A program made the position numbers and the translations under genes. Source: Terriglobia bacterium (lineage in GTDB: Bacteria; Acidobacteriota; Terriglobia; 20CM-2-55-15). From it: 64,000 nucleotides of DNA. The notes beneath the pieces are model-generated. The model was not told the DNA's origin. It searched no databases and saw only the letters and a program-made list of their open reading frames with translations. The stretch lies in assembly GCA_963664115.2 (NCBI GenBank), contig CAXWPJ010000012.1, forward strand, positions 448,001 through 512,000, read 5' to 3'. This document shows positions 38,876-62,845 of this stretch, in pieces (within the stretch, counting starts at the first letter, position 1; every line of letters begins with the position of its first letter).

Positions 38876-38910
38876 CTCGACATCCGGCACGATGACCTGT
38901 CAGGATTTGA
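38876..38910. repeat. Degenerate copy of the array palindrome
   Basis: CTCGACATCCGGCACGATGACCTGTCAGGATTTGA resembles CTCAATGTCCGACACGATGATTTATCAGGACTTGA at 62687. Confidence 0.55.
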
Positions 38911-39025
38911 AAACGGCGAAGGCACTTCTCCCGATATCCGGTTAGAACTAAGCCGCAGGCGCTCGGAGTCGGCGTACAGCAGATAGAGTCTGTCCCATAA
39001 AGTAGCGGTCATAAGGAGGTGTCTT

Positions 39026-39907
39026 ATGACCCAACTACGAGAACGGATGCTGGAGGAACTCCAGCGACGGAACTATTCCCCGGCCACGAGTCGTGGCTAC
39101 ATTCTGGCAGTCGAACAATTCGCGAATTACTTCGGCAAGTCTCCGGCCTTGATGGGAGCCGAGGAGGTACGGCGTTTTCAGCTGTACTTACTGACCGAAA
39201 AGAAGCTGGCGGCGAGTACGGTCGGGATGCGGACCTCGGCGATACGATTCCTTTACAAGAAGGTGCTGCTGCGACGTGCGGATCTGGAACTGGATGATCT
39301 GCCCATGCCCAAGAGTGCGCGGAAACTACCCACGATCCTGGGTCCGTCTGAAGTCCGCCGGTTGATCCAAGCCGCATTGAGTCCGATGCACCGGGCCATC
39401 CTGATGGTGCTCTACGGGACCGGGATGCGACGGGCCGAAGCCGCCGTGTTGAAGGTGGCCGACATCGACAGTGAACGGATGCTGGTGCATATCCGCGACG
39501 GGAAAGGGCGTCGGGACCGGGATGTCCCGTTGAGTCGCAATCTGCTTGAAGCGTTACGGGGGTACTGGTTATTGAAAAAGCCCGAGGTCTATCTGTTTCA
39601 CAGCAGTGCAGGACACCGGGGCACGGATGCTCCGATCTCGGACAAGGTGGTCTGGCATGCCGTTCATGGGGCCGCCCAGCGTGCGGGTCTGACCCAGAGG
39701 ATCGGTCCGCACACGCTACGGCACAGCTTCGCGACCCACCTGCTAGAGTCCGGGACCGACTTGCGCACGATCCAGCTCTTGATGGGACACAGTCGGCTCA
39801 GCGATACCACGCTCTACCTGCAACTGTCCCGGCGCCATCTTCGAACCGCGCGCAATCCTCTGGATCAGTTGAAGCTTTCACCTGTGGTTAAGGATCCAAA
39901 GAAGTGA
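39026..39907 (+). CDS. Tyrosine recombinase/integrase
   Basis: GTGMRRAE, GKGRRDR, HTLRHSFATHL, MGHS..TTLY. Confidence 0.92.
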   Translation: MTQLRERMLEELQRRNYSPATSRGYILAVEQFANYFGKSPALMGAEEVRRFQLYLLTEKKLAASTVGMRTSAIRFLYKKVLLRRADLELDDLPMPKSARKLPTILGPSEVRRLIQAALSPMHRAILMVLYGTGMRRAEAAVLKVADIDSERMLVHIRDGKGRRDRDVPLSRNLLEALRGYWLLKKPEVYLFHSSAGHRGTDAPISDKVVWHAVHGAAQRAGLTQRIGPHTLRHSFATHLLESGTDLRTIQLLMGHSRLSDTTLYLQLSRRHLRTARNPLDQLKLSPVVKDPKK

Positions 39908-41088
39908 GCCGGCCACCCTTTGAGGTGGCTGACGTGATTCGCATCGTCGGAGACCGATTCCGACAACGGTATTTGAAAGCGCTGGCCTGGCCCCAGGTCA
40001 AGGTCCTCAACGCGATTACCCATTGCCGGACCGCCGCACTGGGCGGGAACCGGAAACGATGCGACCACTGTGGCCACCAAACGCTGGTCTACCACTCGTG
40101 CCGGAACCGCCACTGCCCGAAGTGCCAGACCAATGCGCGGAACACCTGGGTCGAGAAACGGCAACAGGAACTGCTACCGATCGGATACTTCCATCTGGTC
40201 TTCAGCCTGCCCCATCAGTTGATCCCATTGATCTGGCAGAACAAGAAGGTGCTCTATGCGCTTCTGTTCCGAACCAGTGCGGCGGCGCTGATCGAAGTGG
40301 CCCGAAACCCCAGGTATCTGGGCGGCGAGATCGGATTCCTCAGCATCCTGCATACCTGGGGACAAACCCTGCAACGCCATCCCCATATCCACTGTGTGGT
40401 TCCCGGTGGCGGACTGTCCCCGGATCACGACCGGTGGATCCACTCCTCCCGGACCGACTTCTTCCTCCCGGTCCAGAAGCTCAGCTACGTTTTCAGAGAA
40501 AAGTTTCTCGACGGTTTAGCCGAAGCCTTCGGAAACAAGACGCTCGTTTTCCATGGGGAGTGTCTGGAACTGGCCACCGAATCCACCTTCGAGCGGTTCC
40601 TCGACGATCTGAAGGATCGGAACTGGGTGGTGTACGCCAAAGAACCATTCGGCGGACCCCAACACGTCCTTCAGTACCTGGCCCGCTATACCCATCGGGT
40701 GGCCATCTCGAATCATCGCATCCTCGATGTCAACCAATCCGGCGTTACATTCCGCTGGAAGGACTATCGCCACAATGGCCGTCCACGAACAATGACACTC
40801 CAACCCGAAGAGTTCCTCCGTCGATTCCTCCTGCATGTCTTACCGAAAGGCTTTCCCCGCATCCGGTACTACGGATGGATGGCAAATCGGAAACGCAAGA
40901 CGATGCTGGAACTCTGTCGGCACCTCTTAGGTCAGGAGTCCATCACCGAGCCGGAGTCCGAGGCGGGTGCTACCCCACCGGCACCGTGTCCGATCTGCCG
41001 GGGACCGATGCGTCTGGTCGAGCGATTAACCGCGGCACAGCTCGCCGCTCTCGAATCAAAGGAGGTTCCAATTCAGGATAGTGCGTAG
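39904..41088 (+). CDS. IS91-family transposase (Zn-binding plus Y2 domain)
   Basis: SCRNRHCPKC, HPHIH, YLARY. Confidence 0.92.
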   Translation: MSRPPFEVADVIRIVGDRFRQRYLKALAWPQVKVLNAITHCRTAALGGNRKRCDHCGHQTLVYHSCRNRHCPKCQTNARNTWVEKRQQELLPIGYFHLVFSLPHQLIPLIWQNKKVLYALLFRTSAAALIEVARNPRYLGGEIGFLSILHTWGQTLQRHPHIHCVVPGGGLSPDHDRWIHSSRTDFFLPVQKLSYVFREKFLDGLAEAFGNKTLVFHGECLELATESTFERFLDDLKDRNWVVYAKEPFGGPQHVLQYLARYTHRVAISNHRILDVNQSGVTFRWKDYRHNGRPRTMTLQPEEFLRRFLLHVLPKGFPRIRYYGWMANRKRKTMLELCRHLLGQESITEPESEAGATPPAPCPICRGPMRLVERLTAAQLAALESKEVPIQDSA

Positions 41089-41128
41089 CCATCGACACTC
41101 AACAATTCCAGCCCAACGCGGTCGTCCA

Positions 41129-41423
41129 GACTGCATCGCCGAAGTGTGTCCAGACGCCAAAAACACGCGTGCTCAAGTGCCCTTTCGCTATATCCAACCC
41201 ACCCCACTCGGGCGATCGACAGTGATTTTCCGCTACAACCACCCCCCACCATCACTGCGTCTCCCCGATTCAGCCCGACTGCATCGCCGAAGTGTGTCCA
41301 GACGCCAAAAACACGCGTGCTCAAGTGCCCTTTCGCTATATCCAACCCACCCCACTCGGGCGATCGACAGTGATTTTCCGCTACAACCACCCCCCACCAT
41401 CACTGCGTCTCCCCGATTCAGCC
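41129..41423. repeat. Tandem duplication, period 148 bp, two copies
   Basis: GACTGCATCGCCGAAG..GATTCAGCC starts at 41129 and 41277. Confidence 0.9.
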
Positions 41424-41751
41424 TCCAATCCATGGATTGAAAACCCATAGGTCTTCTCGTTCCCGGCCGCGCCTGCGCCTCACTTCAAACCATTCTATCC
41501 GACATGCCCCGGCATCATTTTTTGTCACTGTCGGTGCCGGACCATCTCCGATACAAAACTGACGTTTTGCGGACAGATGACTGTTTGGTTGACCTCAAGC
41601 CCCACCTGTAGTTCGTTGTAGCACCCCAAATTCCACGCATTGGCAAGTGCGCTAGTCCGAGTTTCATCGAGACTCGAGACAATGTTAAAAGCTTGGTCTC
41701 CAGACTCACTTAAGCCATAGTTGTGAGAATCTGGAAATCAGGAGGTGCATC

Positions 41752-42159
41752 ATGAGCATTAAACGAAGTGTTGCTACCGTCGTTTTTCCCCTGGTGTTTG
41801 TGATGCTGGGCGGGGTGGTTTTCTCAGCCCACCACTCCCGGACCGGCTACGAGAACGAACGCACCGTTACCCTCACAGGATTCGTGACGGAATTCAGGTG
41901 GAGAAATCCCCACACCTTTCTTGTCTGGACGGTGACCGACGAAAACGGAAAAGCAGTGGAGTGGGCAGGTGAAATGCTGTCCATCCAGACCGTGACCAGT
42001 TGGGGATTGACCCGTAACTCATTCCAGCCGGGAGACGAAGTGACCGTGACCGCCTTTCCCGCTACGCGGGGTGCGCCTGTCAGCATAATCCAGAAAGTCG
42101 TGATGACTGCGGATGGCAGCGTCGTGGTGGATCAAACTCGAGACGAAGCCTTTCGATAG
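41752..42159 (+). CDS. DUF6152-like secreted protein
   Basis: Signal-AHHS, WRNPH, W..E, PGDEVTV. Confidence 0.75.
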   Translation: MSIKRSVATVVFPLVFVMLGGVVFSAHHSRTGYENERTVTLTGFVTEFRWRNPHTFLVWTVTDENGKAVEWAGEMLSIQTVTSWGLTRNSFQPGDEVTVTAFPATRGAPVSIIQKVVMTADGSVVVDQTRDEAFR

Positions 42160-44553: not shown

Positions 44554-44701
44554 CGTCGGATCTCCCTCAACCAGAACGTCGGATGCGGTCGCCTGGGGGC
44601 TAAATGCTACCCCCACTCTTCTACGCAACGCAATACCGTAAAAACCCATAAGCAGGCAGGTGCTGCGTTCGACTCTCAACTTCAGATAATCTGATTTTCC
44701 T

Positions 44702-45625
44702 CTACAAGATGCTCTGTCCGAAGGAAGATAAAATCAGATCGACCGCAAGTTCTCCCGTCGTATTGTGATTATCTATGATGGGATTGAGTTCGACCATTTC
44801 CAGGCTCACCATGCGGCCGTCATCCGCAATCATTTCCATCAAAGTGTGCGCTTCACGAAAGTTGATTCCACCTCGGACGGGTGTGCCCACGCCAGGGGCA
44901 ATTTCCGGGTCGAGTCCGTCAAGATCAAAAGAAAGATGAAAGCCAGCTGTCCCATCATTGACGATGTCCAATACCTCCCGCATGACCTCGCCAATACCCC
45001 GTTCGTCGATTTCACGCATGGTAAATACGTGAATTCCCGATTGTTTGATGACTTCGCGTTCCTTGGGGTCAATCGCGCGGATACCGATCAATGCGGTGTT
45101 TTCTTTTTTTACTTTGGGAGAGAAACCATGGATGCCGGTGAGTTCCTGGGGACCGATCCCCAGCAATGCCGCCAAGGGCATGCCATGGATATTGCCGCTT
45201 GGTGATGTGTCTGGCGTATTCATGTCACCGTGGGCATCGATGTAAATAAGTCCTATGTTTTGATTTTTCTTCCGATAATGATTGGATATTCCACTGACCG
45301 TTCCTATGGCAATCGAATGGTCACCGCCCAACACAATCGGGAACGCGTTGGCGTCGATGATTGTTTCTACACGTTGAGCTAAAGAGTTACAGACCTTCAC
45401 AACTTCACGCTGGAATTTTAATCCCCGGCCGGGTGTTTTCGCCTCTGGAATTGGAACCGAAATATTGCCTTCGTAATTCACGTTGTTCCCTAGTCTGCGA
45501 AGGCCGGCGGCAAGGCCGGCGAAGCGAATGGCGGATGGGCCCATGTCGACGCCGCGACGTCCGGCGCCCAAATCCATAGGGACCCCTAAAATTCGTACTT
45601 CGTGATTTGTCGTGGTATTACTCAT
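44702..45625 (-). CDS. rocF: Arginase
   Basis: [37 protein letters not shown]. Confidence 0.92.
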
Positions 45626-45658
45626 GATCAATACATCACCCGCTACCAAGTTGAAGCT

Positions 45659-45743
45659 TGATTTGTCGCTACCTTGAACTCGAACATCATGGCACCAGCA
45701 CCCGTTCCCTCAGTTCTTCAAACCTGTTCAGGATGACATCGAT
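45659..45743 (-). repeat. Array unit: kinase 3' stub plus degenerate half palindrome
   Basis: IDVILNRFEELRERVLVP* (stop 45687-89). Confidence 0.75.
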
Positions 45744-45909
45744 CTAAACGGCTTAGCAATCTTCACCGAGCGAACCCCTGGGAGGATGCCGGGAGTGCTG
45801 ACCGAAACCCGCTGCCGCTTACCCTCGAGAGTGAGCAGGCAGGAGCCGGCCATCCAGACCCGCTTCTCCCACGATGAAATCAGGATTCGAATAGACCTGT
45901 TGACGCAGC

Positions 45910-46668
45910 TCATCCACACCCGGGCGGCAGGATCTCGGCGTCGCCCAGATGGTGCAGGCGGTAGATGTCGCTCGCCGACGCCCACCTCAGACGGCAGATT
46001 TCCTCGGCGCGGTTCACGGCGCGGGCTTCGAGCTCGGGGGTGTCGAGGTATTTCGAAGCCAGTTCGATCTGGCGTTGGGAGTGTTCCTGGTCGGCCGCTT
46101 CGTGGGCAACGAAGAATTCGATGGCTGGCGAGTCCCTGTCAAAACCGTAATGGGTCGTCAAGGCGGGAATGGTGATCTCGGCGTTGAGTTGGGGCTGCTG
46201 CCCTTCCTGGGTGAACATGGCGGCAAGCGCCACGCCGATGGCTTCGAACTCGGCCATGTAACGGTAGAACAGGGTCCGCGCCCACCACGCCGGGGTCAGC
46301 TCCGTGGCGTCGATTTCCTCGCGCGTCATTCCGGCGGCGAGGCAGAAATTGTGCAGCATATCCATATGCTCATGGGGATCGTTGCCGATCTTGTCCATCA
46401 TGATAAGGCCCTCTTCTTCGGCCAGGTTTTCGATGCACATCTTTTTCACTTCCATCGGTCCGCGGGCATAAAGAAGGCCAAAGCTTTCAAGGGCCAGGAC
46501 GACAAACTTGGCGTGACAGGCCTGATGAATCGCAAGTGTCTTTATATCGAGCTTGCCTTCCGCGAGGGTGGTGAACAGCGGGTGCTGCTTGGTGTGCCAC
46601 TTGTCGCGGATGGCGATAATTCGATCGCCCACCGTTTTGCGGGCGTCGCCCGCCGTGTCCGGCCTCAT
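45910..46668 (-). CDS. TenA/PqqC/CADD heme-oxygenase-like diiron protein
   Basis: QHPLF, ENLAEEEG, HEH, FFVAHEAADQEH. Confidence 0.75.
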   Translation of the reverse strand: MRPDTAGDARKTVGDRIIAIRDKWHTKQHPLFTTLAEGKLDIKTLAIHQACHAKFVVLALESFGLLYARGPMEVKKMCIENLAEEEGLIMMDKIGNDPHEHMDMLHNFCLAAGMTREEIDATELTPAWWARTLFYRYMAEFEAIGVALAAMFTQEGQQPQLNAEITIPALTTHYGFDRDSPAIEFFVAHEAADQEHSQRQIELASKYLDTPELEARAVNRAEEICRLRWASASDIYRLHHLGDAEILPPGCG

Positions 46669-47144
46669 GATGACGATAACCTCCCCTACCCGATGGTCTG
46701 CCGATGCCGTCTACCGTGCTTATTCGATTTCACGCTCAAGGCACCCTATATACACATAATTCGGCGTCAACTATACCCTCTTCGCCGCCCCTGACCGTCC
46801 TGCTAAACCCCGCCAGCTGGCGCAGATCGTTCCGCCGGAATTCTTCGAGTCGCTCCTACGACGCCAGCAGCCCTGCCAGGGCCACTCATGAATTGATGCG
46901 GTACGGGAACCCGTCGACAAACGATATCGGTCTCACGGACATAAACGAGTCCTTTGAATTTGATGTATGCACCGCAGTTTTCATGTCATACGATTCCGTC
47001 GGAGTTTCGTGCCGGATTCCATATTCAAAGTGTGCAATTAAGGACGCTATGTAAATTTAGCTAATCGGTACAAGAGGTGAGGGTTATTGGCAAGAAAATC
47101 GTCGATGACAGACCTGCGACCATTTCTCAAGGTCCGACAAGATG

Positions 47145-48392
47145 ATTCAGATCAACCGGTCGATGCAACACCTGCGTTTAATGTCTCTGCCGGATTAGCG
47201 AAGTCCAGCGTCTCACGAGGTCGCCCGTTGAGCTTCCTTGCGATCATATCCAAATGCTCCTGTGAGTGAACCGACAAGTCCGTACCTTTAGGGAATACTG
47301 TCGGAGCAAACCGTTCGTGTTTTCGTTCGAACCCCGTTGCCAGGGACTCCTCGGATCGCAAAAGTAAACGGCAATGTCGGTGGCCAGAGTGAACCGTTTG
47401 TGATTGGCCATTTCCAATCCGCGATCCCAGGTCAGTGTTTTATAGAGTTCGGTCGGGAGTTTGTCTGCGTGTTCGATCAGCGCGTTGATGACGGTTTCGG
47501 TTTCCTTATTCGGAACCTTCACCCGCATCACGTACCGGGAGAAACGTTCGACCAATGTCGCAATGTAGGTGTTGTTCGAACCCGCTATGAGATCCCCTTC
47601 CCAGTGTCCGGGGACCGCGCGATCTTCAACCGAAGCCGGGCGCTCACGGATCGATATCAGATCCGGGATCTGCCCGCCACCCCGGCCTTTGCGACTGGCA
47701 TGCCGGGACCGGCGAATCGTGCGTTTGGTCCGTAGATGCTGTGTCAGTTCTTTCTTCAGAGCCCCGCGGGCCTGGATGAAAAGGCTGCGATAGATCGTTT
47801 CGTGTGACACGTAAAGTGACTCGTCGTCTGGATATTCGCGTTTCAGCCAACCCGCAATCTGTCGCGGTGCCCAATCCTCCCGGAGCTTCTCTTCGACGAT
47901 CCCGCGTAAGCTGGGATAGCGGATCAGTCGACATCTCTTCGGGCGGTGAGCCCGTTCCCATGCGCGTTCATCCGCCTCCAACGCTCGATAGTTATCATAG
48001 CCCCCATTGCGACCGATCTCCCGACTGACTGTGGAGGGTGCACGCGACAGCGAGGCGGCAATTGAACGGATCGATCCCTTGGCGGCAATGCCTCGGGAAA
48101 TCTCTTCACGCTCGGCGAGGGTCAGCGCCCGCTTAGAGCGGCATCGTGTCCTGGGACAGATTCCACCATACGGTGCGATCTGACCATAAACCGAAGAGCC
48201 CTCCTTTCCGAACACACGTCCGATCGCTTTTAGACTCTCTCCCCGCTGCCAGCGAATCCACACCTCGTCTATATCGGCGAGTGTGTAGCCTCGCCGCACC
48301 CGGTCTTTACTCTGTTTCTTCCGTCGTTTCTTACGCATACACTCCACCTCCTCCTTTTAGGTACAGTGTTGCATCGATCTGTTGAGACCACC
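47145..48392 (-). mobile_element. IS30-family insertion sequence
   Basis: Subterminal IRs TCAACCGGTCGATGCAACAC / GTGTTGCATCGATCTGTTGA; duplication TG (or TGATT). Confidence 0.8.
47152..48347 (-). pseudogene. IS30 transposase with a 1-bp frameshift near the C-terminus
   Basis: [30 protein letters not shown], then FPKGTDL continues in another frame near 47295. Confidence 0.8.
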
Positions 48393-53264: not shown

Positions 53265-53392
53265 CAATCGGTCAGGAAGTGATACATGCCGAGGACGTTC
53301 TCGTCGATCCAATCGCAGTCCCCCCAGTGACTGTACTCTTCCATCTTGATGTTTCGTAGCATGTCCTCCAGCGTCTGGCCCGAAGCAATGCC
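53265..53392 (-). pseudogene. C-terminal remnant, probably of an MBL-fold hydrolase
   Basis: GIASGQTLEDMLRNIKMEEYSHW..DWIDENVLGMYHFLTD resembles cyclase-type MBL C-termini. Confidence 0.45.
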
Positions 53393-53459
53393 ATAGTCGT
53401 CAGCCCCTGCTTATATCGCTTTTCCGCCCGGAACTATGCCATGGCAGGTTTAGTCAGGT

Positions 53460-54367: not shown

Positions 54368-54820
54368 TTAGGACACCGGCACCCGTTCTTTCAGTTCTTC
54401 AAATCAGAGCGCCCGGATCTGTTGCTGGCCGCGTTGTGCGCCGGATTCCATGACTTAGTGTGTCGCCAATAGGGACAGCGAAATTTTGGTAAGTCTATCT
54501 ACATGGGAGGGTTATTGGCAAGAAAAGCGTCGATGCCCGACTTCCGGCCATATTTCAACGTCCGACAAGATGATTTATCGGGCGTTGAGAATCGTTTTCA
54601 GTCGGGGACCAGCAACAGCCTGCGCTACGGCACGGTCGCAGCCGTGAGAAAATCGTGCTGACGTTGAGTCGCGTTGGTCACATAGCGATCCACCAGCACT
54701 TGCGTGGCCTGTCCAGGGACAAAGCCGTCTCCGACTGGCACCGGGACGCTCATCAGTTGGTCGTCGGGTGATCGGCAGAATAATTCGCGAGCATCTCTCG
54801 ACCAGGCGAGGCTAATAGTC
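54368..54820 (-). repeat. Array unit: propeller remnant, palindrome 54555-88, promoter, 84-bp collapsed kinase gene
   Basis: AWSRDARELFCRS..LMSVPV remnant; MESGA..*FEELKERVPVS* in one frame at 54368..54451. Confidence 0.8.
54492..54521 (-). promoter_or_regulatory. Sigma70-type promoter inside the array unit
   Basis: TTGCCA-18 bp-TAGACT; near-identical at 56236..56265. Confidence 0.55.
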
Positions 54821-54853
54821 ATTTAAAGGGCTATGTTGCCACCTAACCCATTA

Positions 54854-55927
54854 CTAGGGATGTATCGGCATGGTCCGCCTTCCGTCCACGATAGGCGGAA
54901 AATCCTTCGCCTCGTCATACACCTCGGTGATGAAGCGATCCTTGCTCTGCTGCGTGTCGCCCTGGGTCGTCGTGTCATACGGCGCGGTCAGGTCGGCGGC
55001 CAGAACTTCCTTCAGCGACTTACCCTGGTTGCGCAGCGCCGTTACCTTTGCCAGGATGTCAACCAGCATGGCCCGATACGGCAGGAGAGCCTCCCTATGG
55101 ATGAGCTTGCCATGGCCGGGGATAAGCCACGTGTCGGGGCCGGCAATCTCCTGGAAGAGATCAACCGCCTCGATCATGCCCCTGATCGAGCCGCCACTGG
55201 TCTGAGCGGCGAAGGGATAGCCGAAGTTGCGGTAGAAATCCTCGATGTAGATCACATTGGCCTTGCGGAAGCGCACGACGGTGTCGCCAGCGGTGTGGGA
55301 CGGCATCATCGGAATGAAATCCACCGTTTCGCCGTTCATGTTCAAGGTAACGGCGGGCTCGCCAGCCGCGGCGGGGTCATAGCGATAGGTCACCATCGGA
55401 ATGGCGGCCATATCGAGCGCCGGGGCCGGCTGGCCGTTGCGGCGCCGCGGATTGATCATGTCAAGGCGGAGATTTTCCTGCGCGAAGATCAACGCCCCCT
55501 GCTTGGAGAAGAAGGCATTGGCGCCGGTATGGTCGCCATGAATATGCGTGTTGACCAAGACCTTGATGGGCGCGTCAGTAAATGACCGTATCGCCGCCAG
55601 TGTCTTTTCGGCCACTTGTCTGTTCTCGGTATCCACCATCAGAACGCCATCCGGTCCGAAAAGCACCATGGCCCTGCCGCCAGACGCGTCGGGGTGTGCC
55701 GGATCAAGGCCTTTCGAACCGTGCAGAACAAATAGATTCGGCGACATTTTTTCTGTCACCATAATCTGAATCTTGTCCCAGGGCCTCTGGTAGCCCTCCG
55801 GAAACGTGTACGGGCCCTCGCCCGTCGGGATCACGATGATGGGATATTCCACTCCCTGTGCCCAAACCATCGAGGGAACAGCGACCATCGCGGCCACACC
55901 CAATAACAACACTGCGCATTTCTTCAT
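54854..55927 (-). CDS. MBL-fold metallo-hydrolase (cyclase-like), secreted
   Basis: NTHIHGDHTGAN, SHTAGD, IPGHG. Confidence 0.85.
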   Translation of the reverse strand: MKKCAVLLLGVAAMVAVPSMVWAQGVEYPIIVIPTGEGPYTFPEGYQRPWDKIQIMVTEKMSPNLFVLHGSKGLDPAHPDASGGRAMVLFGPDGVLMVDTENRQVAEKTLAAIRSFTDAPIKVLVNTHIHGDHTGANAFFSKQGALIFAQENLRLDMINPRRRNGQPAPALDMAAIPMVTYRYDPAAAGEPAVTLNMNGETVDFIPMMPSHTAGDTVVRFRKANVIYIEDFYRNFGYPFAAQTSGGSIRGMIEAVDLFQEIAGPDTWLIPGHGKLIHREALLPYRAMLVDILAKVTALRNQGKSLKEVLAADLTAPYDTTTQGDTQQSKDRFITEVYDEAKDFPPIVDGRRTMPIHP

Positions 55928-56113
55928 TGCCCCGCTCCTTGTCTCGTGTTTCGACTTACCTGGCGATGCCCCACAACTGTTGCAATTCGCAGCGGCGGCG
56001 CCTCACTGCCTCGTGATCCACGCGCGGTCATCAAACCTGAGGTGAAAAGCCTCACAGAGAAGAAGCCGCCATGCAGTCGCAGTCTGGCACACCCGTGGTC
56101 TCGATTTTGTGCG

Positions 56114-56720
56114 TTATCGACCGACTTCACCCATCCCACCCTTACCAAGGAGTGTCCCGATCTCGTTATTGCCTAGTTTGATGCCGGATTCCATGTTTAC
56201 TGTGTGTCGCCACGTGGAGCAGCCAAATTCTGGTAAGTCTATCTACATGGGAGTGTTATTGGCAAGGAAAGGGTCAACGCCTGAATTTTGGCCAATTCTC
56301 AACGTCCGAAAAGATGATTTAACAGGACTTGAACTCGAAAAACTACGGCACCGGCACCCGTTCCTTCAGTTATTCAAACCTGTTCAGACGACGTTCAGTT
56401 GCGTAAATTTCGCGCCGGTGTCCTGGACCGTAAGGAAGCGTTGGCCGTCTGGCGAAACATCGTAGTTGGCTCCCTGCGCGCCGGAGACCAGGCGCAAGCC
56501 TTGCTCCAGGACCACGCGGGGAGTTCCAGGCTGGAAGGTCGGTTGCGTCGTGATGTCCACAGCCATGAGCTCCCCGTTAATTCTGCTGGCATAAAAAAGT
56601 TCGCGGCCGTCCCGCCCCCAGAACGGCGCCAAGCCCCCTTCGGTAGAAATCTGAAACTGCCCGCCGGGGCCGGGGAATGCACGCACGTAAATCTCGCTCC
56701 TCCCGGCCCAGACGGTCATG
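56114..56720 (-). repeat. Most complete array unit: ~125-codon propeller 3' remnant, palindrome 56299-332, promoter, 26-aa kinase 5' stub
   Basis: EIYVRAFPGPGG..ISTEGG..DGRELFY..YDVSPDGQRFL..LKERVPVP*; MESGIKLGNNEIGTLLGKGGMGEVGR*. Confidence 0.85.
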
Positions 56721-56979
56721 GGACTATTCTGGCGTCGTTTTTTAGTCCTTTTCTTCACTCCGATGCCATGCCCGCACCCCATCCCTATCTCTCCTACCTC
56801 GCAGAGGTCGCTTATTTCGCCTATACTCCCTCTTCGTTGAATCAACCAAACATTGGTGAAGAAAGGCACTCCCCGCCAAGTCATTCTGACGACGTACAGT
56901 CACGGCCGGCAACGTGTTATTAAAGATGAGAATAAATGTGGGTACGAGTATGAGAGGTTCGTCATATTCGGATGTGCAT

Positions 56980-59202
56980 ATGAGGAGGCTCCCGCAAATA
57001 CTCGCTGCGTTTTTCGCATTTTTCTTCACCGCCTGGCCTGCCTATTCCCAGGAGTCGGCGGAGCCTCCAATCGACTACGCAACGGCCTACCTGGACCGGC
57101 AGGTCACCGCTGTCCGGATTGCGGAAGAAATCACGCTCGACGGTCTCCTCAATGAAGCTTCATGGAGTCTTGCCCAGCCAGCCACAGACTTCATCCGGTG
57201 GCGGCCCAATCCCGGCGAGCCAGCCATCGAAACCACGGAAGTCTATTTCCTGTACGACGACGACAATCTCTACATCGGCTTCATCTGTCACGATTCCGAA
57301 CCTGACAACATCCGGATCAACGACCTGAGAGAAGATTACAGCTTCTTCGGAAACGATGGCGTCGCGATACTGATCGACAGCTTGAACGACGATCGTTCGG
57401 GTTTTATATTCGGGACCAATCCAGTGGGCGCCAAACGCGACGCCCAGGTAACCAACGACAGCGCCTACAACTGGGATTGGGACGGGGTATGGAACGTCCG
57501 GTCGAGCCGGAACGACGCGGGATGGATCGCGGAGATCGCGATTCCTTTCAAGACCCTCCGGTTTTCAGGCGCGTCGATCCAGGAATGGGGGCTCAACATT
57601 AACCGGCATATTCTGCGCGCCAGCGAAGAGGCTCAGTGGTCCCCGCTTCCCCTCCGATATTCGTTCAGCAGAGTGTCGCTGGCGGGGTCACTGCGCGGGC
57701 TCGAGAATATCCGTCAGGGCCGGAACCTCAAGGTCAAGCCTTATGTGATCACGAGCTTTGCACAATCCCGAAGCCGCAACTTTGAGTGGCAGGATCACTA
57801 TGACGGTGGTGTGGACCTTAAATATGGCCTGACGCCTTCCCTGACGTTAGACGCGACGTACAATACCGATTTCGCGCAGGTTGAAGCCGACCAGCAGCAA
57901 GTCAACCTCACACGATTCAATCTCTTTTTTCCGGAGAAAAGAGATTTCTTTCTTGAGAATGCCGGGACATTCTCCTTTGGCAGTGCCGGATTCGGGCCTG
58001 GCGGCTCGCTTGTGCCGTTCTTCAGCCGGCGGATTGGTTTGAGTAGGCGTCTGACACCGGTTCCTATCCTCGGTGGTGTCCGCGTTTCAGGCCAGACCGG
58101 CCGTTACGATATCGGCTTTCTCACGATGAAGGCCGATAAACTGGACCCGTTGGAGGATCCAAACATCGAGGCTCTCGCCGCGACGCCATCGAACAACTTC
58201 TTCGTGGGGCGCATCAAGCGGAACCTGCTGACGAATTCATGGATTGGCGGCCTCGTGACTCACCGCGACTCTACCGATGACGGCGACTATAACCGTGTGT
58301 ACGGCGCGGATGCCCGATTTCAGTTCTTCGGCCGTCTGAACTTCGATGCCTACATGCTCAAATCCACAACGCCGGGGATGTCCGGAGAGGACCAGGCCCG
58401 CCGGTTCGGAACGTCATGGGTTGACGACGAAGTTGCCGTGTCGGCAGGTTATCTCACGATTCAGCCCAACTTCAATCCCGAGCTCGGCTTCGTGCGGCGG
58501 GACAATATGACTCAGCACGACGGATCATTCGCCTGGAGGCCGCTGATCAGATCCGGCGCTGCGATTCGAAACCTTCAATTTCAGACCGATGTGACTTACA
58601 TTCAAGGCGCCGGTTCCGGAGAAATCGAGACGCGAGACCACGCAATCATAACCGGACTCGAGTTTTGGAACGGGGGTCATATCCGTTATACGTCGACGGA
58701 GCGGTTCGAGCGGTTGAACAGTCCGTTTTCGATTCGGTCGGGGACCACGATCCCGGGTGGGGATTACAGTTTCCGTGAACACTCCGTCAGCGCCGCGAGT
58801 GATCCGAGCCGAACGATCAGTGGTAACGGCAGTGTCAATTGGGGCGATTTTTGGGATGGGGACCGTACGGCGTTTTCGGGTGCCCTCAGCCTGAAACCCA
58901 ACTATCGATGGGGACTCGACTTCAACTACATTCGGAACCGCGTCACCCTTCCAGATGGGAGCTTCACGACCGACCTTATGGGAGCGCGGCTCATCTACGG
59001 CTTCAACCCGTTTGCATTCTTCAACGCCTTTATCCAGTACGACGCTGAAGCGAACCGCGTCAGCTCGAACATCCGGTTCAATTGGACGCACAGCCCGCTG
59101 AGCGACCTCTATATCGTATACAACGACACGCGCGACACCGCCCGGGGCGAACTTGTCGATCGGGCTTTCATAGTCAAGTTCACGAACTTGTTCAATTTCT
59201 AA
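56980..59202 (+). CDS. CBM9-like plus DUF5916-like outer-membrane protein
   Basis: ITLDGLLNEASW, LYDDDNLYI, WDGVW, AEIAIPFKTLRF, NTDFAQVEAD, FPEKRDFFLE, terminal F. Confidence 0.8.
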   Translation: MRRLPQILAAFFAFFFTAWPAYSQESAEPPIDYATAYLDRQVTAVRIAEEITLDGLLNEASWSLAQPATDFIRWRPNPGEPAIETTEVYFLYDDDNLYIGFICHDSEPDNIRINDLREDYSFFGNDGVAILIDSLNDDRSGFIFGTNPVGAKRDAQVTNDSAYNWDWDGVWNVRSSRNDAGWIAEIAIPFKTLRFSGASIQEWGLNINRHILRASEEAQWSPLPLRYSFSRVSLAGSLRGLENIRQGRNLKVKPYVITSFAQSRSRNFEWQDHYDGGVDLKYGLTPSLTLDATYNTDFAQVEADQQQVNLTRFNLFFPEKRDFFLENAGTFSFGSAGFGPGGSLVPFFSRRIGLSRRLTPVPILGGVRVSGQTGRYDIGFLTMKADKLDPLEDPNIEALAATPSNNFFVGRIKRNLLTNSWIGGLVTHRDSTDDGDYNRVYGADARFQFFGRLNFDAYMLKSTTPGMSGEDQARRFGTSWVDDEVAVSAGYLTIQPNFNPELGFVRRDNMTQHDGSFAWRPLIRSGAAIRNLQFQTDVTYIQGAGSGEIETRDHAIITGLEFWNGGHIRYTSTERFERLNSPFSIRSGTTIPGGDYSFREHSVSAASDPSRTISGNGSVNWGDFWDGDRTAFSGALSLKPNYRWGLDFNYIRNRVTLPDGSFTTDLMGARLIYGFNPFAFFNAFIQYDAEANRVSSNIRFNWTHSPLSDLYIVYNDTRDTARGELVDRAFIVKFTNLFNF

Positions 59203-59768
59203 AACGCCCATCTGCTCCGGACAAGCGAACGCGGATACGCTGCTTCTGATCTTTCTGAACCACCCTGAATCGTAGTTGTGACTGCCGGCGGGGCAGAAGC
59301 GATTGCTCCCCAATCAGGTTCCTTCATCAAGATCGCCGCTAACGTCTCCGACACGTCCTGAGCCTGGAATGCCAATTTTCCAGTCAGCATTTCGTAGAGG
59401 ACCGCACCGAGAGCCCAGATGTCCGTCCTCTTATCTACGGAAAGGTCTTTAGCCTGCTCGGGCGACATATACGCTGCCGTCGCAAGAATCATTCCCTGCT
59501 GTGTGGCTGCCATGCTCAAGGTTGGAGAATTGGACACGCTCGGGTCAGCAGCGCCGGCTTCAAACGCTTTCGCCAAAATCAAATCCAGAACTTTCACCTT
59601 CCCGTCATGTGTGACCTTGATATTCGCTGGCTTGAGATCTCTGTGAATGACGCCCTTTTCATGCGCTGCTTCCCAGGCTTCTGTAATCTGTGGGGCGAGC
59701 GTCAGGGATTCTTCGACAGGGATCGCACCACGCTTCAACCGATCAGCAAGCGTGTCGCCGCATTCCAT
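59199..59768 (-). pseudogene. Internal fragment of a Ser/Thr protein kinase
   Basis: HRDLKPANIK, DFG degenerated to DLI, YMSPEQ, DIWALG; lacks N-lobe and propeller. Confidence 0.85.
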
Positions 59769-59943
59769 TGAAACAATGGGAGATACAGCCAGTTGGAGGC
59801 CATTCGCGGAACGGCAGGCGAGAGGAGAGTTTCCGTTCGCTGAAATTCTAAATGTCCGCGAAATTGATTTATCAGGACTTGACCTCGAAAATCAGGGAAC
59901 CGGCATCCGTTCCTTCAGTTCTTCAGTCCAGTTCAGGGCGACT
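59769..59943 (-). repeat. Array unit (spacer variant B, palindrome 59849-82, 3' stub)
   Basis: VALNWTEELKERMPVP*; spacer similar to 61785-61915. Confidence 0.8.
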
Positions 59944-59973
59944 GCCTGAAACAACCCATTCTCGTGAAAATTA

Positions 59974-60150
59974 ATGTCACCCGTCGCCGAACTTATAGAG
60001 GAGATCGTATCGGATGACGTGCTGGACCGGGCGTATGCGTGGATGTGCGAAGGCCGGACCGGGCGTAATGTGCGAAGGCCGGAAAGACTATTCCGCCAAC
60101 AGCGATGTGTGGGATGTCTGGTGGAAATGGCACGACATCAAGCCAGCACA
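59974..60150 (+). pseudogene. Possible reverse-transcriptase N-terminal remnant
   Basis: IVSDDVLDRAYAWMCEGR-KDYSANSDVWD, frameshifted by a 25-bp duplication; family recalled from memory. Confidence 0.45.
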
Positions 60151-60240
60151 CATGGACATATACAGAAAAGCTTGTCTCCGGGCTTTCTCCGTGTCACGAT
60201 TCGGTTTCACCCGACTTGGGAGCCTTAGGGGGACACGTTC

Positions 60241-60897
60241 ATGCGTCTGATTCCATTCATAATGGGGGCGGCTCTGCTGGTCGCAGAGTCCGCCACCGCC
60301 CAGGGCTGGATTCGGTTCTCCAGCCAGGAGGACTTCTTCAGTGTCAACATCCCGAACGAACCGACGGTGGCGCCTACCACCTACACTTCCGCGCAGGGAG
60401 CACCGCTGCCCGGCCGCGTTTACTCCGCCGAGCAAGGCCAGAGACGCTTCTCGGTGACGGTCGTGGATTACTCGCCCATTGAGGCAGTCATGCTGGAGCT
60501 GAGGAAGGAGTGCGATCCTGAAGCCCACAGCGCATGCGTGGGAGATACCGGCGATGGTGCGACCGGGCCCGGTTACGCGAAGCTGGACAAGGCCGGGGCC
60601 GTCGATTTCGCGACGTGGAACATCATCAAACGGGGCTCTGAGATCACCTACTTCGCGTGGAGTTTTCTCGACTTTATCGGCGGACGCTGGATGCACCTTA
60701 CCAACCCGGACGGGTCCCGCACATACTACGCAATTACCATGCACCAGGACCGGCTCTATATTTTTGAGGCGACGGTGCCCAAGGGAGAACCCGAGCCGGG
60801 AATATTTCACCAATCCGTGCGGTTCATCGACGATCAGGGAGAACCCGTGAGGTACGACTACCTCTATCACAACGGTTACGGGAGGCCGACCAACTAA
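60241..60897 (+). CDS. Secreted hypothetical protein
   Basis: Signal peptide then QGWIRFSSQEDFFSVNIP; resembles 48554. Confidence 0.7.
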   Translation: MRLIPFIMGAALLVAESATAQGWIRFSSQEDFFSVNIPNEPTVAPTTYTSAQGAPLPGRVYSAEQGQRRFSVTVVDYSPIEAVMLELRKECDPEAHSACVGDTGDGATGPGYAKLDKAGAVDFATWNIIKRGSEITYFAWSFLDFIGGRWMHLTNPDGSRTYYAITMHQDRLYIFEATVPKGEPEPGIFHQSVRFIDDQGEPVRYDYLYHNGYGRPTN

Positions 60898-60913
60898 TCC
60901 TGACATCCGGAGA

Positions 60914-61306
60914 GTGAACATGTTCAGGTATATGGCTCTTGCAGTTGTCTGTGGCGCGTCGTTCGGAATGTCGGCGTGGGGGCACCATTCTCACAACAAC
61001 TACGTGATTGATTTTATGACGGTGGAGGGCACGGTCACCGAAGTCCACCCTCTCAACCCGCACTCCTGGGTCTATATCGAAATCAACGGCGAGAACGATG
61101 AACCGATGCTGTGGGCGCTGGAAGCAACCAGCCTCAGCGGGCTCGAAAGGAACGGCATCACGCCCGAAACCATCCAGGTAGGCGACAGGATCCGGGCACG
61201 GTGCCACCAACTCAAAGACGGAGCCAACGGCTGCTTGCTGGGGTTCCTGACGCCGATGCATGGCGACCTCGCGCGAGGCCACGGCATCGAAATAGAGTGG
61301 GATTGA
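60914..61306 (+). CDS. DUF6152-like secreted protein
   Basis: Signal-GHHSH, LNPH, WALE, VGDRI. Confidence 0.75.
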   Translation: MNMFRYMALAVVCGASFGMSAWGHHSHNNYVIDFMTVEGTVTEVHPLNPHSWVYIEINGENDEPMLWALEATSLSGLERNGITPETIQVGDRIRARCHQLKDGANGCLLGFLTPMHGDLARGHGIEIEWD

Positions 61307-61426
61307 CGACGATCGCATGCACCGCGCGACGGCCTGCGGCCGCGCGCGGATTGATATAACACCCATACGACGACACTGTTGGCGCTGCCATAGTCGTCAG
61401 ACCCTGCTTATATCGCTTATCCGCTT

Positions 61427-61978
61427 TGGGTGATTCAGCGAAGCAAGTAGTTTGGCTTCACGCTCAAACCGGGCGAGACGGTCGGCGTCTCTGGCGAACT
61501 CTTCAGGAAGTGTCTTAATCGCAACTTCACGTCTCAACTTGATGTCACGCGCACGCCATACCTCTCCCATTCCGCCCTTACCTAAGAGCGTTGAGATCTC
61601 GTAATGGCCGAGTTTTGTGCCGGATTCCATCGTTATAGCGTGTCGTTAATTGAACCGAGAAAAACTCTGCAAAGAATACTAAGGCGGGGAGTTAGGCGCT
61701 ATCAAATTCTCAGGTCAAATTCTCAGGTCCTGAGAAACGACATTCTCGGAAAGTGAGAATTGGAGTGCATCGAGTGACACAGTAATCCATTGGAATAATG
61801 GTAGATATAGCCCATTGAAGGCAAATCCAAGAACGGCAGGCGAGAGGAGGGATTTCGTTCGCTGAAATTCTCAATGTCCGCGAAGATGATTTCTCAGGAC
61901 TTGAACTCAGAAATCAGGGCACCGGCACCCGTTCCTTCAGTTCTTCATACCAGTTCAGGACGATGTTGATTTGGCTCG
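61427..61978 (-). repeat. Array unit: 3' stub, palindrome 61871-904, long spacer, 68-aa kinase 5' fragment
   Basis: QINIVLNWYEELKERVPVP*; MESGTKLGHYEISTLLGKGGMGEVWRARD..VAIK..LASLNHP. Confidence 0.85.
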
Positions 61979-62169
61979 ACACAGGATCGAGAAGCTTAGG
62001 ACTGGAGTGGTATTACTTGAAATTCGTCTCTTAGAACAACAGTGTTTCTGTGCGAATTACTTTTACGACGCACACCTCTCCGACATCGGATGGACGGCCT
62101 TCTCTACCTTTCGGACAAGCCTGACGCCTCGCCCGTGGAATTCGAGACCTTGCCCGCGATGCAAGACTA

Positions 62170-62583
62170 CTATTCTAAATTCGGGGGTGAGTCGTTGCTA
62201 AAGTCGAGGACCCTTCCCGTCGACAGGATCGTGACGTCGCCGGCTAGGAGGGCCTTGGCGCCTTTCCGACGCGAGGGAGCTCCGTCCACGCTGACCCGCA
62301 TGCCCGGTGTCAGTGTGTCGTCGGTCCAACCCGCCCGAATCATGGCGCTCGCGTTTTTTGCGCCGGTTACATACCAATCGGATTTCTCACCATTGGGGCC
62401 GGTGACCTCCACAACAATTTGGACGTGTGGATTGATAATATGCACCTCTTTCAGAACGCCTTCAATGGATGCCGATTGATCCGTGAGCCAAAAGGACCTC
62501 TGCGAATGGTGCGCCTCGAGTGGGAGCGGCACCATTAGCAGCAAACCCGCCAACACAAATGACACATAGAGTCGCATGCTCAT
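62170..62583 (-). CDS. DUF6152-like secreted protein
   Basis: Signal-AHHS, INPH, PGMRVSV. Confidence 0.72.
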   Translation of the reverse strand: MSMRLYVSFVLAGLLLMVPLPLEAHHSQRSFWLTDQSASIEGVLKEVHIINPHVQIVVEVTGPNGEKSDWYVTGAKNASAMIRAGWTDDTLTPGMRVSVDGAPSRRKGAKALLAGDVTILSTGRVLDFSNDSPPNLE

Positions 62584-62687
62584 GTTCCTCCGATCAATTC
62601 TTGCTAGGTTACCTGCAACATATTACTCGCGATACGTTCAACTTAACGGAGTTTTCGGAATGGTGCCCACGGATCAGTGCGCGGTTC

Positions 62688-62845
62688 TCAATGTCCGACA
62701 CGATGATTTATCAGGACTTGACCTCGGAAATCAGGGAACCGGGACCCGTTCGTTGAGTTCCTCAAACCAGTTCAGGACGATGTTAATTAGGTCTGGCTCT
62801 GCCTCGCTGGCTGTGATCGCGGCGTCCCGGGCCTCACGAATCGTT
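62688..62845 (-). repeat. Array unit: palindrome 62688-721 plus 3' stub
   Basis: EPDLINIVLNWFEELNERVPVP* (stop 62731-33). Confidence 0.8.

Follow-up and report, generated by a model that had tools for sequence, protein, structure and literature searches.

The conserved junctions of decaying tandem kinase arrays are, as we tentatively read them, portable homology for RecA-type recombination and at the same time landing sites for insertion sequences, which together may reshuffle gene modules within and between related genomes, an explanation that we prefer while holding it with somewhat less than even confidence. The resemblance to integrons is one of outcome rather than of shown mechanism. The starting point would have been a tandem kinase array with genes that were dispensable and already expressed; new modules would arise through illegitimate joints and deletions next to insertion sequences or MITE insertions inside the kinase genes, and existing modules would spread by crossovers in near-identical junction blocks of 40-100 nt. 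At 40 nt, a block has close to the minimum length for RecA-type exchange. The evidence for exchange is genome comparison, no crossover having been directly observed.

Each junction is built, in this order, of a kinase 3' stub, the stop codon, an imperfect palindrome of about 40 nt (the core), a promoter-like leader, and a kinase 5' stub. A repeat search over the window, the whole stretch of 64,000 nucleotides that was analyzed, found eight copies of the 3' stub family (45691-45739, 48424-48472, 49983-50031, 54372-54420, 56347-56395, 59896-59944, 61918-61966, and 62735-62783), and in combination with alignment it recovered all eight stub ends listed in the initial annotation of this DNA. The aligned 3' stubs read ..NIVLNWFEELKERVPVP*, with conserved sequence continuing 3' of the stop codon. 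The four 5' stub starts of that annotation (47022, 54451, 56194, and 61630) were found again, and, as it had stated, no intact kinase lies within 44-64 kb. Its palindrome of some 34 bp is also present, but it spans about 40 nt, is imperfect, and folds no better than shuffled sequences. The stubs vary at the third bases of kinase codons, which identifies them as recent or gene-converted kinase ends. Their inner ends vary, from about 13 to 60 nt in the 3' stubs and from 5 to 206 codons in the 5' stubs, a pattern more in keeping with illegitimate joints and deletions than with crossover at one fixed point.

The window's features lie on the minus strand unless stated otherwise. An arginase-family gene (44702-45649; Pfam 1.2e-78), whose module 44692-45628 is common to the congeneric genomes G003 and G004, is followed by junction copy 1 (45641-45747; repeat search, alignment, and nhmmer), in which the 3' stub ending at 45687 precedes a degenerate core, and by a TenA/haem-oxygenase-like gene (45910-46668; Pfam PF14518, 1e-13). 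An IS30-like insertion sequence (47147-48392; HTH_38 and rve in Pfam) lies in the centre of a core, with both junctions read: on one side are the 3' half of the split core (47146-47125), leader A, and a 7-codon kinase 5' stub with its ATG at 47022 (together 47002-47146; sequence and repeat families), and on the other is junction copy 2 (48393-48480; repeat search and alignment), the 3' stub ending at 48420 and then the 5' half of the core. This junction of element and core is common to at least five genome copies. Beyond a DUF6152 gene (49081-49476; Pfam 2.2e-28), junction copy 3 (49979-50031; repeat search and alignment) comprises a 3' stub only, its post-stop sequence not being core, and a DDE-transposase insertion sequence (about 50141-51998; Pfam) of high copy number in G000, the soil acidobacterial genome containing the window, and its congener G001 comes next. 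The amidohydrolase_2 module (52032-53392; Pfam; 94% identity to G002 and G004) has its 5' end cut short, and at the truncation point stands a 39-nt piece of a 103-nt MITE-like repeat (53389-53427; repeat search). After a dienelactone-hydrolase (DLH) gene (53460-54350; Pfam 1e-35), an empty frame (54368-54451; alignment and repeat families) fuses the kinase 5' start to the last ~12 codons without body or cargo; a core with a second linker type (54614-54548) and leader A with a TTGCCA-18-TAGACT match fill 54458-54614 (repeat search and nhmmer). The MBL-hydrolase module (54627-55968; Pfam), which has identical limits in G002 and G004, holds the gene at 54854-55927 and an open 65-codon frame ending ..ATVP* (54628-54822); the initial annotation had read a propeller remnant here, and BLASTP of the frame against an intact kinase gave a nonsignificant E of 0.33.

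Further along, a 26-codon kinase 5' stub (56117-56194; repeat families) adjoins junction copy 5 (56202-56402; repeat search and alignment), which contains the 3' stub ending at 56343, a core, and leader A. The DUF5916/CBM9 gene (about 56890-59202; Pfam), part of a module common to G001 and G004, had been described as minus-strand cargo and is actually on the plus strand, antiparallel to the array. The kinase catalytic fragment reported beside it (about 59199-59891) was borne out by a Pfam Pkinase match of 1.9e-25 covering profile positions 82-212 only, without the first ~80. Junction copy 6 (59846-59952; 3' stub ending at 59892, then core; repeat search and alignment) is followed by two overlapping ORFs of 180 and 277 aa (60088-61366), formerly called a gene pair, which have no Pfam match. 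The complete 103-nt MITE-like repeat (61322-61424), with sharp ends and about 25 genome copies, marks the edge at which kinase homology ends; next to it are a 68-codon kinase 5' stub (61427-61630; Pkinase profile positions 1-59) and leader B with a TTGATA-18-TAGTAT match and a variant core in inverted orientation at 61733-61773 (together 61631-61773). Junction copy 7 (61868-61974; 3' stub ending at 61914, then a perfect core), a DUF6152 gene (62170-62583; Pfam 3.7e-15), and junction copy 8 (62685-62791; 3' stub ending at 62731, then core) follow, both copies resting on repeat search and alignment; at copy 8, homology to G002 (97%) begins exactly at the 3' edge of the core. A dienelactone-hydrolase gene on the plus strand (63027-64000; Pfam 1.9e-41) runs past the window end. 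Three mobile elements of this array, the IS30-like element, the DDE insertion sequence, and the 103-nt MITE-like repeat, had gone unmentioned in the initial annotation.

The profile scan that had been proposed was run on the genome, and the nhmmer profile returned 275 junction copies in G000, a phenomenon far larger than the window. A reversed-pattern control gave 0 matches in all 41 genomes searched, so the junction repeat is not a product of chance. Most copies (241 of 275) fall in 28 mostly co-oriented arrays that together cover 501,677 bp (0.50 Mb); 188 of 218 neighbouring pairs are co-oriented, the median spacing is 1,536 nt, and the longest ORF of an inter-junction segment is co-oriented with the junction in 110 of 169 cases and on the opposite strand in 59. 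Across the 28 arrays, most kinase bodies have been deleted from between the junctions or swapped for unrelated genes: kinase tail-motif matches lie in frames of at least 150 codons in 7 of 52 cases, and 35 of 38 head-motif matches are open for 5-206 codons. Few intact kinases of this subfamily are present in G000, with 4 full-length uninterrupted matches among the matches listed versus 18 in G007. The sister genera, represented by G007, G013, and G017, carry mostly intact kinases in tandem; in these three genomes the stop of one kinase overlaps the start of the next (..CCATGATCGG..), and the palindrome is absent between the overlapping genes. We infer that a tandem kinase array was ancestral.

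Comparison with the four congeners (G001-G004) indicates that the junctions delimit exchanged modules. Five window modules (MBL, amidohydrolase, arginase, DUF5916, and DLH) recur as single occurrences at unlinked sites in congeners with 85-97% identity, and modules of two other arrays are likewise displaced in G002, where neighbours in G000 lie on different contigs, and the reverse also holds. Synteny with all four congeners extends as far as window position 37,930, at the array edge, past which each congener differs; at that site G002 has other modules and 6 junction copies, and G001 and G004 have no junction copy in 20 kb. The initial annotation had proposed that the junctions serve as homology arms or recombination sites for gene exchange; this is partly supported, in that the junctions delimit exchanged modules, and dedicated machinery found no support. 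Misassembly, which it had raised as an alternative, is countered by metagenome contigs from two studies, one run of which may be the source sample, that span the junctions at 45687, 56343, and 62731 with 0-1 differences, and hence misassembly confined to this record does not account for these three joins. On exchange the joints of those contigs are uninformative, since the contigs break off at the repeats and the joint sides measure 32 nt at most.

Where two copies share one flank, their homology mostly runs as far as an edge of the conserved junction and no further. Among upstream-homologous pairs, 23 of 52 part at the 3' edge of the core; among downstream-homologous pairs, 35 of 66 do so at its 5' edge and ~17 of 66 at the stub start. 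A break inside an identical block cannot be placed by homology mapping of flanks, for which reason these divergence points fit site-specific recombination equally well. Between genomes, module limits fall at the stop codon, the 5' edge of the core, its 3' edge, and once its centre, with no single point in common, and the core travels with the downstream module in four of six comparisons. The MITE-like repeat stands exactly where two modules are cut, and this, together with the variable stub lengths and the empty frame at 54368-54451, points to illegitimate joints.

Minimal mobile elements are cassettes that are swapped through homologous recombination within their conserved flanks. By analogy, we think that the arrays may work like those of Neisseria, different genes lying between conserved sequences and moving through general recombination, no dedicated enzyme being involved; the term occurs in PMC3787668 and PMC3082526. 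The flanks differ in being a junction of 100-300 nt repeated ~275 times rather than two single-copy genes, so that any slot can exchange with any other, and in being both ends of one gutted gene family.

The best-conserved part of the junction is the palindrome. In G000, 127 copies match a 34-nt pattern, 78 of them perfectly, with variation limited to four positions and the other 30 nearly invariant. The consensus is identical in three species; the four congeners have 88, 42, 10, and 0 copies, two genomes of a sister genus carry the core once each, and G007 has a perfect core beside a decayed stub. Imperfect inverted arms of 15 nt (CTCAAGTCC(T)GAGAA / TTCTCGGAC(N)TTGAG) flank an asymmetric 6-nt centre, ATCATC, which is as invariant as the arms. 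The constrained part of the array is this attC-like palindrome, not the kinase stubs, and such a near-invariant core exceeds the constraint expected of mere homology arms, which counts against a reading by homology only. The initial annotation had spoken of an integron-like array without attC sites; the outcome is indeed integron-like, whereas the mechanism is unsupported and the attC-like palindrome is there. Since the core is conserved by sequence and not by fold (no better than shuffles, with no covariation seen), we take it to be a candidate protein-binding site.

One function that would follow this description is regulatory. The palindrome would serve the following promoter as operator or upstream activating site, the kinase tail would be a weak terminator, the arrays decaying paralogues, and the shuffling a by-product of a very high insertion-sequence load; we consider this possible, if unlikely. 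Sequence conservation in every copy and between species, the retention of the core with the downstream module, and the ~70 copies of one DDE insertion sequence in G000 are in keeping with it. Leader B has its own variant core ~100 nt upstream of the ATG, and the distance from core to start is 100-139 nt in 14 of the 23 strict cores that precede a kinase-type start by no more than 400 nt; these 23 are, however, a minority of 127, and the next long ORF lies at widely varying distances. Conserved sigma-70-like matches occur in both leaders, and the stub tail with TGATTTT scores terminator-like, observations that we count for the preferred explanation as well; promoter-like matches in the region (7), however, do not exceed those in shuffles (4.1, sd 2.3). 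No regulator was identified, and regulation alone leaves the repeated place of cargo between kinase ends unexplained.

Rather unlikely, in our judgment, is that an unrecognised site-specific recombinase, host-encoded or unlinked to the arrays, uses the palindrome for crossover, which would make the arrays true gene-cassette arrays. The layout is lox/dif-like, flanks are swapped at the core, neighbours are largely co-oriented, copy number differs sharply among congeners, and direct repeats of an asymmetric site would permit circle excision and re-insertion. Against this stand the several module limits, the variable stubs, and the 59 segments with their longest ORF on the other strand, as does the search for machinery, which found no recombinase linked to the arrays. 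The integron integrase IntI of G000 is at least 190 kb from any junction copy, has GTTAGGC-type sites unlike the core, and gave no hit in G003 and G004, both of which bear the repeat; one tyrosine recombinase is flanked by cores (C5:52192-53154) and was not found in G002-G004. CALINs are clusters of attC sites without an integrase, and known attC sites measure ~57-141 nt. Like integron cassette arrays and CALINs, the present arrays have co-oriented modules of ~1.5 kb, between them an imperfect palindrome that is lineage-specific and leaves one base unpaired in each arm, diverse cargo, content varying between relatives, and a palindrome targeted by insertion sequences. They differ in having no adjacent integrase, the real IntI of this genome using other sites; in a 40-nt site that does not keep the AAC/GTT triplets; in modules with their own promoter-like leaders and incomplete co-orientation; and in module ends that carry kinase-gene remnants of variable length. 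The sites of pdif modules alternate in orientation, whereas those found here are chromosomal, direct, 36-40 nt long, and unlike the dif consensus. The two have in common discrete accessory modules bounded by short sites, two arms around a 6-bp centre, shuffling between replicons, targeting by insertion sequences, and the lack of a module-borne recombinase. The pdif modules of Acinetobacter are plasmid-borne and use XerC/XerD sites, as reported (PMC6449649, PMC13141974, and PMC10132070). Insertion sequences of at least four kinds sit at fixed points in or beside the core, which also speaks for a recombination site, attC and pdif sites being reported as insertion-sequence targets (PMC10132070).

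Very improbable is a selfish REP/REPIN- or MITE-type repeat multiplied by transposition (for example by a RAYT-type Y1 transposase) and favouring the space after kinase genes: the core does resemble REP/BIME/REPIN elements as a short imperfect palindrome just 3' of stop codons, genus-specific, present in hundreds of copies with occasional inverted pairs (e.g., 61733-61773 with 61868-61905) and a hot spot for insertion sequences, but its copies are clustered in the arrays and co-oriented rather than scattered both ways, tied to the 3' end of one gene family, without fold stability beyond shuffles or a linked RAYT, and variable at four positions only rather than throughout as in decaying copies. 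REP elements have a GTAG or CGTC head motif, and by eye the core has neither. Two Y1_Tnp genes occur in G000, one with a degenerate core ~180 nt upstream, and a core pair flanks neither (0 of 2).

To the left of the arginase-family gene, a weak copy of the core on the minus strand (38869-38915; nhmmer profile positions 92-138, 18 bits) lies just outside the left end of an IS91-family insertion sequence on the plus strand (38931-41566; Pfam), which has 6 near-identical genome copies and comprises a tyrosine recombinase (38987-39904), a Y2 transposase (39892-41085), and a 148-bp tandem repeat (41126-41421), as identified by Pfam and repeat search.

In the window, a repeat search recovered an eight-copy family of kinase 3' ends at 45691, 48424, 49983, 54372, 56347, 59896, 61918 and 62735, which places the stubs, the leftover ends of kinase genes, where the initial annotation had put them; further repeat families corresponded to the kinase 5' end and to its upstream sequence. 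Aligned on the minus strand, the eight copies shared a common ..ATCAACATCGTCCTGAACTGGTTTGAAGAACTGAAGGAACGGGTGCCGGTGCCC TGA, and the post-stop sequence TTTTCGAG-GTCAAGTCCTGAnAAATCATCTTCnCGGACnTTGAGAA was kept in six of them, with the copies at 49979 and 54368 diverging after the stop. Pfam returned only pieces of kinase, at 61400-61630 (positions 1-59 of the Pkinase profile) and 59202-59891 (positions 82-212), in agreement with the earlier statement that no intact kinase is present. The cargo was likewise borne out by Pfam, namely an arginase, a TenA/haem-oxygenase-like gene, an amidohydrolase_2, two dienelactone hydrolases (DLH), an MBL hydrolase, a DUF5916/CBM9 gene and two DUF6152 genes forming single-gene modules (49081-49476 and 62170-62583). 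A third DUF6152 gene lies outside the array at 41689-42156 (Pfam), making three within 21 kb of the window. The DUF5916 gene had been assigned to the minus strand, which was wrong, as it is encoded on the plus strand. Although the open frame of 65 codons that had been called a propeller remnant does exist (54628-54822, ending in ..ATVP and a stop), its similarity to an intact kinase was not significant (E 0.33).

The repeated unit, here called the junction, comprises a kinase 3' stub with its stop codon, a palindromic core, a leader and a kinase 5' stub. Two rounds of nhmmer with a 221-nt unit detected 275 copies in the source genome (an assembly of 4.89 Mb in 12 contigs, of which the window covers C12:448001-512000), 241 of which fall into 28 arrays of at least three copies that span 501,677 bp, about 10% of the genome. 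Neighbouring copies were co-oriented in 188 of 218 pairs, with a median spacing of 1,536 nt, and the longest ORF ran in the direction of the junction in 110 of 169 inter-junction segments. The loci of singleton copies outside the arrays were likewise mosaic, and none of them offered a clean empty site. The core consensus, CTCAAGTCC(T)GAGAA-ATCATC-TTCTCGGAC(N)TTGAG, consists of an asymmetric 6-nt centre between two imperfect inverted arms of 15 nt, each arm having a single unpaired base, and a TGA lies 9 nt upstream of it in both linker types. A fuzzy scan with the first half of the post-stop sequence gave 185 copies in the source genome, and a kinase stub stood directly upstream in 83 of them among the matches listed, so that more than half follow another upstream sequence. 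Downstream, several sequence families start directly after TTGA(GAA). The commonest, leader A, is about 100 nt long, ends at the kinase ATG and contains a TTGCCA-18-TAGACT match, while leader B combines a TTGATA-18-TAGTAT match with an inverted variant core of its own roughly 100 nt upstream of the ATG. A sigma-54 promoter was considered for the leader and dropped, as the GG-N10-GC spacing did not fit by eye. The last codons of the stub together with TGATTTT scored as terminator-like by consensus match. Combined with the leader matches, this gives the complete junction the order terminator-like tail, core, promoter-like leader and start codon.

The stubs matched intact members of a family of Ser/Thr kinases with a C-terminal beta-propeller, both in the N-terminal kinase domain and in the conserved tail at the C-terminus. 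The tail ..LNWFEELKERVPVP, followed by the stop, ends two intact genes of 889 and 883 aa in the source genome as well as kinases of the congener G002 and of the sister-genus genomes G007, G013 and G017. In six-frame translation, the tail motif occurred 52 times in the source genome, seven of them in frames of at least 150 codons, and the head motif (MESGTKLGHYEI..) occurred 38 times, 35 of them open for merely 5-206 codons. A protein search with the 889-aa member gave, among the matches listed, four full-length uninterrupted matches in the source genome and 18 in G007, with 266 more matches beyond those listed. In the source genome, the intact kinases are found within these arrays as well, bounded by junctions of the same kind. 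Within the stubs, the variable sites are third codon positions in the kinase frame, which argues against an independent DNA signal and for stubs that are the ends, either recent or gene-converted, of kinases that once functioned. An antisense ORF of 27 codons across the stub and half of the core was rejected, the variation at its second codon positions being that at the third positions of the kinase frame.

Kinases of the three sister-genus genomes were mostly intact. At four of the 14 readable 3' ends the next kinase followed directly, its ATG overlapping the stop (..CCATGATCGG..) and no core separating the two genes; this overlap (ATGA) between tandem kinases, at loci L025, L026, L034 and L039, implies translational coupling of what would be long kinase operons. 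At L032, in G007, a duplicated 66-nt tail stub lies between two kinases. In our small sample of uncultured Terriglobia assemblies, the unit of stub plus core was matched in all four congeners, whereas other genera of the family matched the coding stub only. The left flank of the window's array (22,001-37,930) is syntenic in the four congeners, and beyond the OmpA-family gene every genome differs: G002 carries another module set with six junction copies, and no junction copy occurs within 20 kb in G001 and G004. Cargo modules of the window reappear in the congeners, each alone and at an unlinked site, as observed for the MBL module (54627-55968; 91% in G002, 90% in G004), the amidohydrolase module (52032-53392; 94% in both G002 and G004), the arginase module (44692-45628; 88% in G003, 87% in G004) and the DUF5916 module (57030-59210; 89% in G001, 85% in G004). 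In the segment with core and DLH gene (62685-64000; 97% in G002), homology begins exactly at the edge of the core. In all three genomes the MBL module retains the 65-codon remnant with its ..VP tail, and the linker and core that follow differ. Two other arrays of the source genome behaved in the same manner against G002, some neighbours being on different G002 contigs. Where two copies in the source genome have one flank in common, their homology mostly ends at the borders of conserved junction blocks, according to a homology-break mapping of paralogous copies that places breaks at block edges only, homologous and site-specific exchange being inseparable inside the blocks. The repeat makes short-read assemblies of the lineage break every 1-2 kb; metagenome short-read contigs break at it, joints with sides of 32 nt or less are uninformative about exchange, and uncovered parts are not evidence. 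As a separate observation, 25 nt at window position 60043 were absent from all four metagenome runs compared, reflecting either a strain difference or an assembly error.

Our leading interpretation, to which we give slightly less than even confidence, is that these are gutted arrays of tandem kinases in which the surviving ends and the core serve as blocks for general recombination that moves modules. The starting point would have been tandem kinase genes as in the sister genera, which in this genus came to be separated by a palindromic site and a promoter leader. Dispensable yet expressed, the kinases would then have been gutted repeatedly, either by deletion, a possible example being 54368-54451, where a kinase 5' start is fused to the last ~12 codons with neither body nor cargo, or by illegitimate insertion of other genes, in some cases next to insertion-sequence (IS) or MITE insertions. 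The surviving ends and the constrained core would form near-identical blocks of 40-100 nt in hundreds of copies, between which general recombination could move modules among slots and, after DNA transfer, between species. The arrays appear to work most like Neisseria minimal mobile elements; they differ in repeating one junction genome-wide, those elements having unique flanks. Across the arrays, one expanded gene family now forms frames (promoter, start, tail and palindrome) around unrelated hydrolases and secreted proteins, and in sister species the same modules are placed elsewhere. In soil, Acidobacteria rank with the most abundant bacteria and, to our knowledge, their gain and rearrangement of accessory genes are poorly known. 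Should the junctions provide homology only, they would show unusually clearly how paralogues of one family can serve as a platform for exchange throughout a genome; a palindrome that truly is a site of recombination would make the arrays a cassette system of a new type. In both cases the repeat can be used in practice to find the flexible genes of this lineage.

The core itself is constrained. A strict 34-nt pattern (30 fixed letters, up to three mismatches), scanned across 41 genomes with some counts resting on the matches listed, gave 127 matches in the source genome, 78 of them perfect, and 88, 42, 10 and 0 in G002, G003, G001 and G004, respectively. Outside the genus, single copies were found in G007 and G017 (two genomes of genus g4), that of G007 being a perfect core after a clearly decayed stub, and none in the other 34 relatives; the reversed-pattern control had no match in any genome. 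Public genome contigs and public metagenome contigs held the pattern at eight loci each, a number too small to reveal an associated gene, and a literature search on the tail peptide and on kinase, repeat or cassette elements of Acidobacteria found no paper describing the repeat. Variation was confined to four positions (12, 23, 24 and 30 of the 34-nt pattern), at the unpaired base and a mismatched stem position, and the same consensus was kept across species whose syntenic core-genome DNA is merely 70-87% identical to that of the source genome. The core folded no better than shuffles as DNA or RNA (z -0.25 to -1.75; -0.7 to -1.75 for DNA), which led us to reject a stable hairpin or terminator at this site. 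The only variable stem pair (columns 25/36) showed no covariation (GC 47, GG 32, UC 30, CC 20, UG 11, CG 9), 1,889 of 2,000 shuffles pairing as well, and a compensatory inner-stem change (GAGAA/TTCTC versus GACAA/TTGTC) that had seemed real by eye failed when counted. A known RNA family was rejected too, Rfam giving no match at the gathering threshold across the whole window. This constraint on sequence, with no fold, covariation or Rfam match, suggests that the core is a sequence-specific protein site.

Such a site could be purely regulatory, with shuffling as a by-product of the IS load, an explanation that we regard as unlikely but deserving some weight; a regulatory role of the core is in any case compatible with the recombining kinase arrays that we favour.

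At least four kinds of IS use the core, three of which insert inside it. One palindrome is interrupted precisely at its ATCATC centre by an IS30-like element (47147-48392), which joins immediately after ..AAATCA in at least five copies in the source genome; like members of the IS30 family, the element encodes an HTH_38 plus rve (DDE) transposase by Pfam, and it has inverted ends (GGTGGTCTCAAC.. and ..GTTGATCTGA) with 3-4 nt of the core repeated at the joints. A second, related IS joins after ..AAATC in at least six copies and a third after ..ATCTTCT in at least three. An IS91-family element (38931-41566), encoding a Y2 transposase with a tyrosine recombinase upstream, is present in six near-identical copies in the source genome, four of which have a core 20-45 nt outside the left end, usually inverted, and a fifth a degenerate core; the window copy also contains an internal 148-bp tandem duplication (41126-41421). 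Additionally, a DDE IS of 1.87 kb (~50141-51998) is present in about 70 copies in the source genome and in dozens of copies in G001; so high a load is unusual and must account for much of the rearrangement between congeners.

A dedicated site-specific system acting at the core seems rather improbable to us, although the core has the two arms and 6-bp centre of an arm-centre-arm layout. We give similarly little credence to its fullest form, in which crossovers at the palindrome would be the work of a hitherto undescribed recombination system that can do without an integron integrase, and about a tenth of the genome would be a second kind of gene-cassette store made from tandem kinase genes; were it true, each cassette would bring or inherit its promoter and its terminator from what is left of the kinase. 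The earlier designation as an integron-like array holds for the outcome, which resembles that of integron arrays and CALINs, but not for the defining features tested. No IntI-type tyrosine recombinase adjoins an array in the source genome. The attC consensus boxes are RYYYAAC ... GTTRRRY, and the consensus of 157 distinct core copies, compared by eye, agreed at five of seven (TCTCAAG) and six of seven (NTTGAGA) positions, the AAC/GTT triplet not being kept (N = G 80, A 46, C 31). A bottom-strand hairpin had no support from the DNA fold beyond that of shuffles, and the modules are not promoterless co-oriented cassettes, given the 110 of 169 co-oriented ORFs and the conserved promoter-like matches of the leaders. 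The source genome does encode one true integron integrase (C9:714608-715549; ~5400-10760 of locus L001), the sole TIGR02249 match above the cut-off (440 versus 265 bits), beside a short run of minus-strand ORFs separated by GTTAGGC/CTAAC-type sites. This integron is unrelated to the kinase-junction arrays, and its integrase was rejected as their enzyme: it lies on another contig than the window, its nearest junction copy on C9 is 191,895 nt away, its sites are of the GTTAGGC type, and the family was not found in G003 or G004, both of which contain the repeat. A lone tyrosine recombinase of 321 aa (C5:52192-53154, within C5:51856-53474) is bracketed by inverted repeats of 243 nt that are 88% identical, each composed of kinase start, leader B and variant core, a structure that looks invertible or transposon-like. 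Its homologues (54-63% identity) occurred in four of 25 other genomes searched; among the congeners it was found in one of four, broken there, and not in G002-G004, and it was rejected for the arrays as well. Acinetobacter dif modules resemble the arrays in site layout and in IS targeting but differ in orientation, replicon and, judged against the general dif consensus, to which the core bore no likeness, in sequence. Neighbouring pdif sites alternate in orientation, whereas 188 of 218 neighbouring junction pairs are direct.

That the core is a selfish repeat of the REP or MITE type is highly improbable. It is extragenic, lineage-specific and high in copy number as REP sequences are, with neither the stable hairpin with compensatory changes nor the Y1 (RAYT) gene flanked by inverted repeat copies of REP/REPIN systems. 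A RAYT mobiliser was rejected, neither of the two PF01797 (Y1) matches, both on contig C10, being flanked by cores; one has a single degenerate core ~180 nt upstream with no partner, and the other has none. A distinct MITE-like repeat of 103 nt (61322-61424), sharply bounded and with termini that look inverted (GCGGATAAGCGATATAA .. TTATATCAATCCGC), occurs about 25 times in the genome. It sits exactly where the 68-codon kinase 5' stub stops, and at 53389-53427 a piece of it coincides with the point at which the amidohydrolase module is cut short (53392); the repeat may be a MITE that gives rise to deletions next to it.
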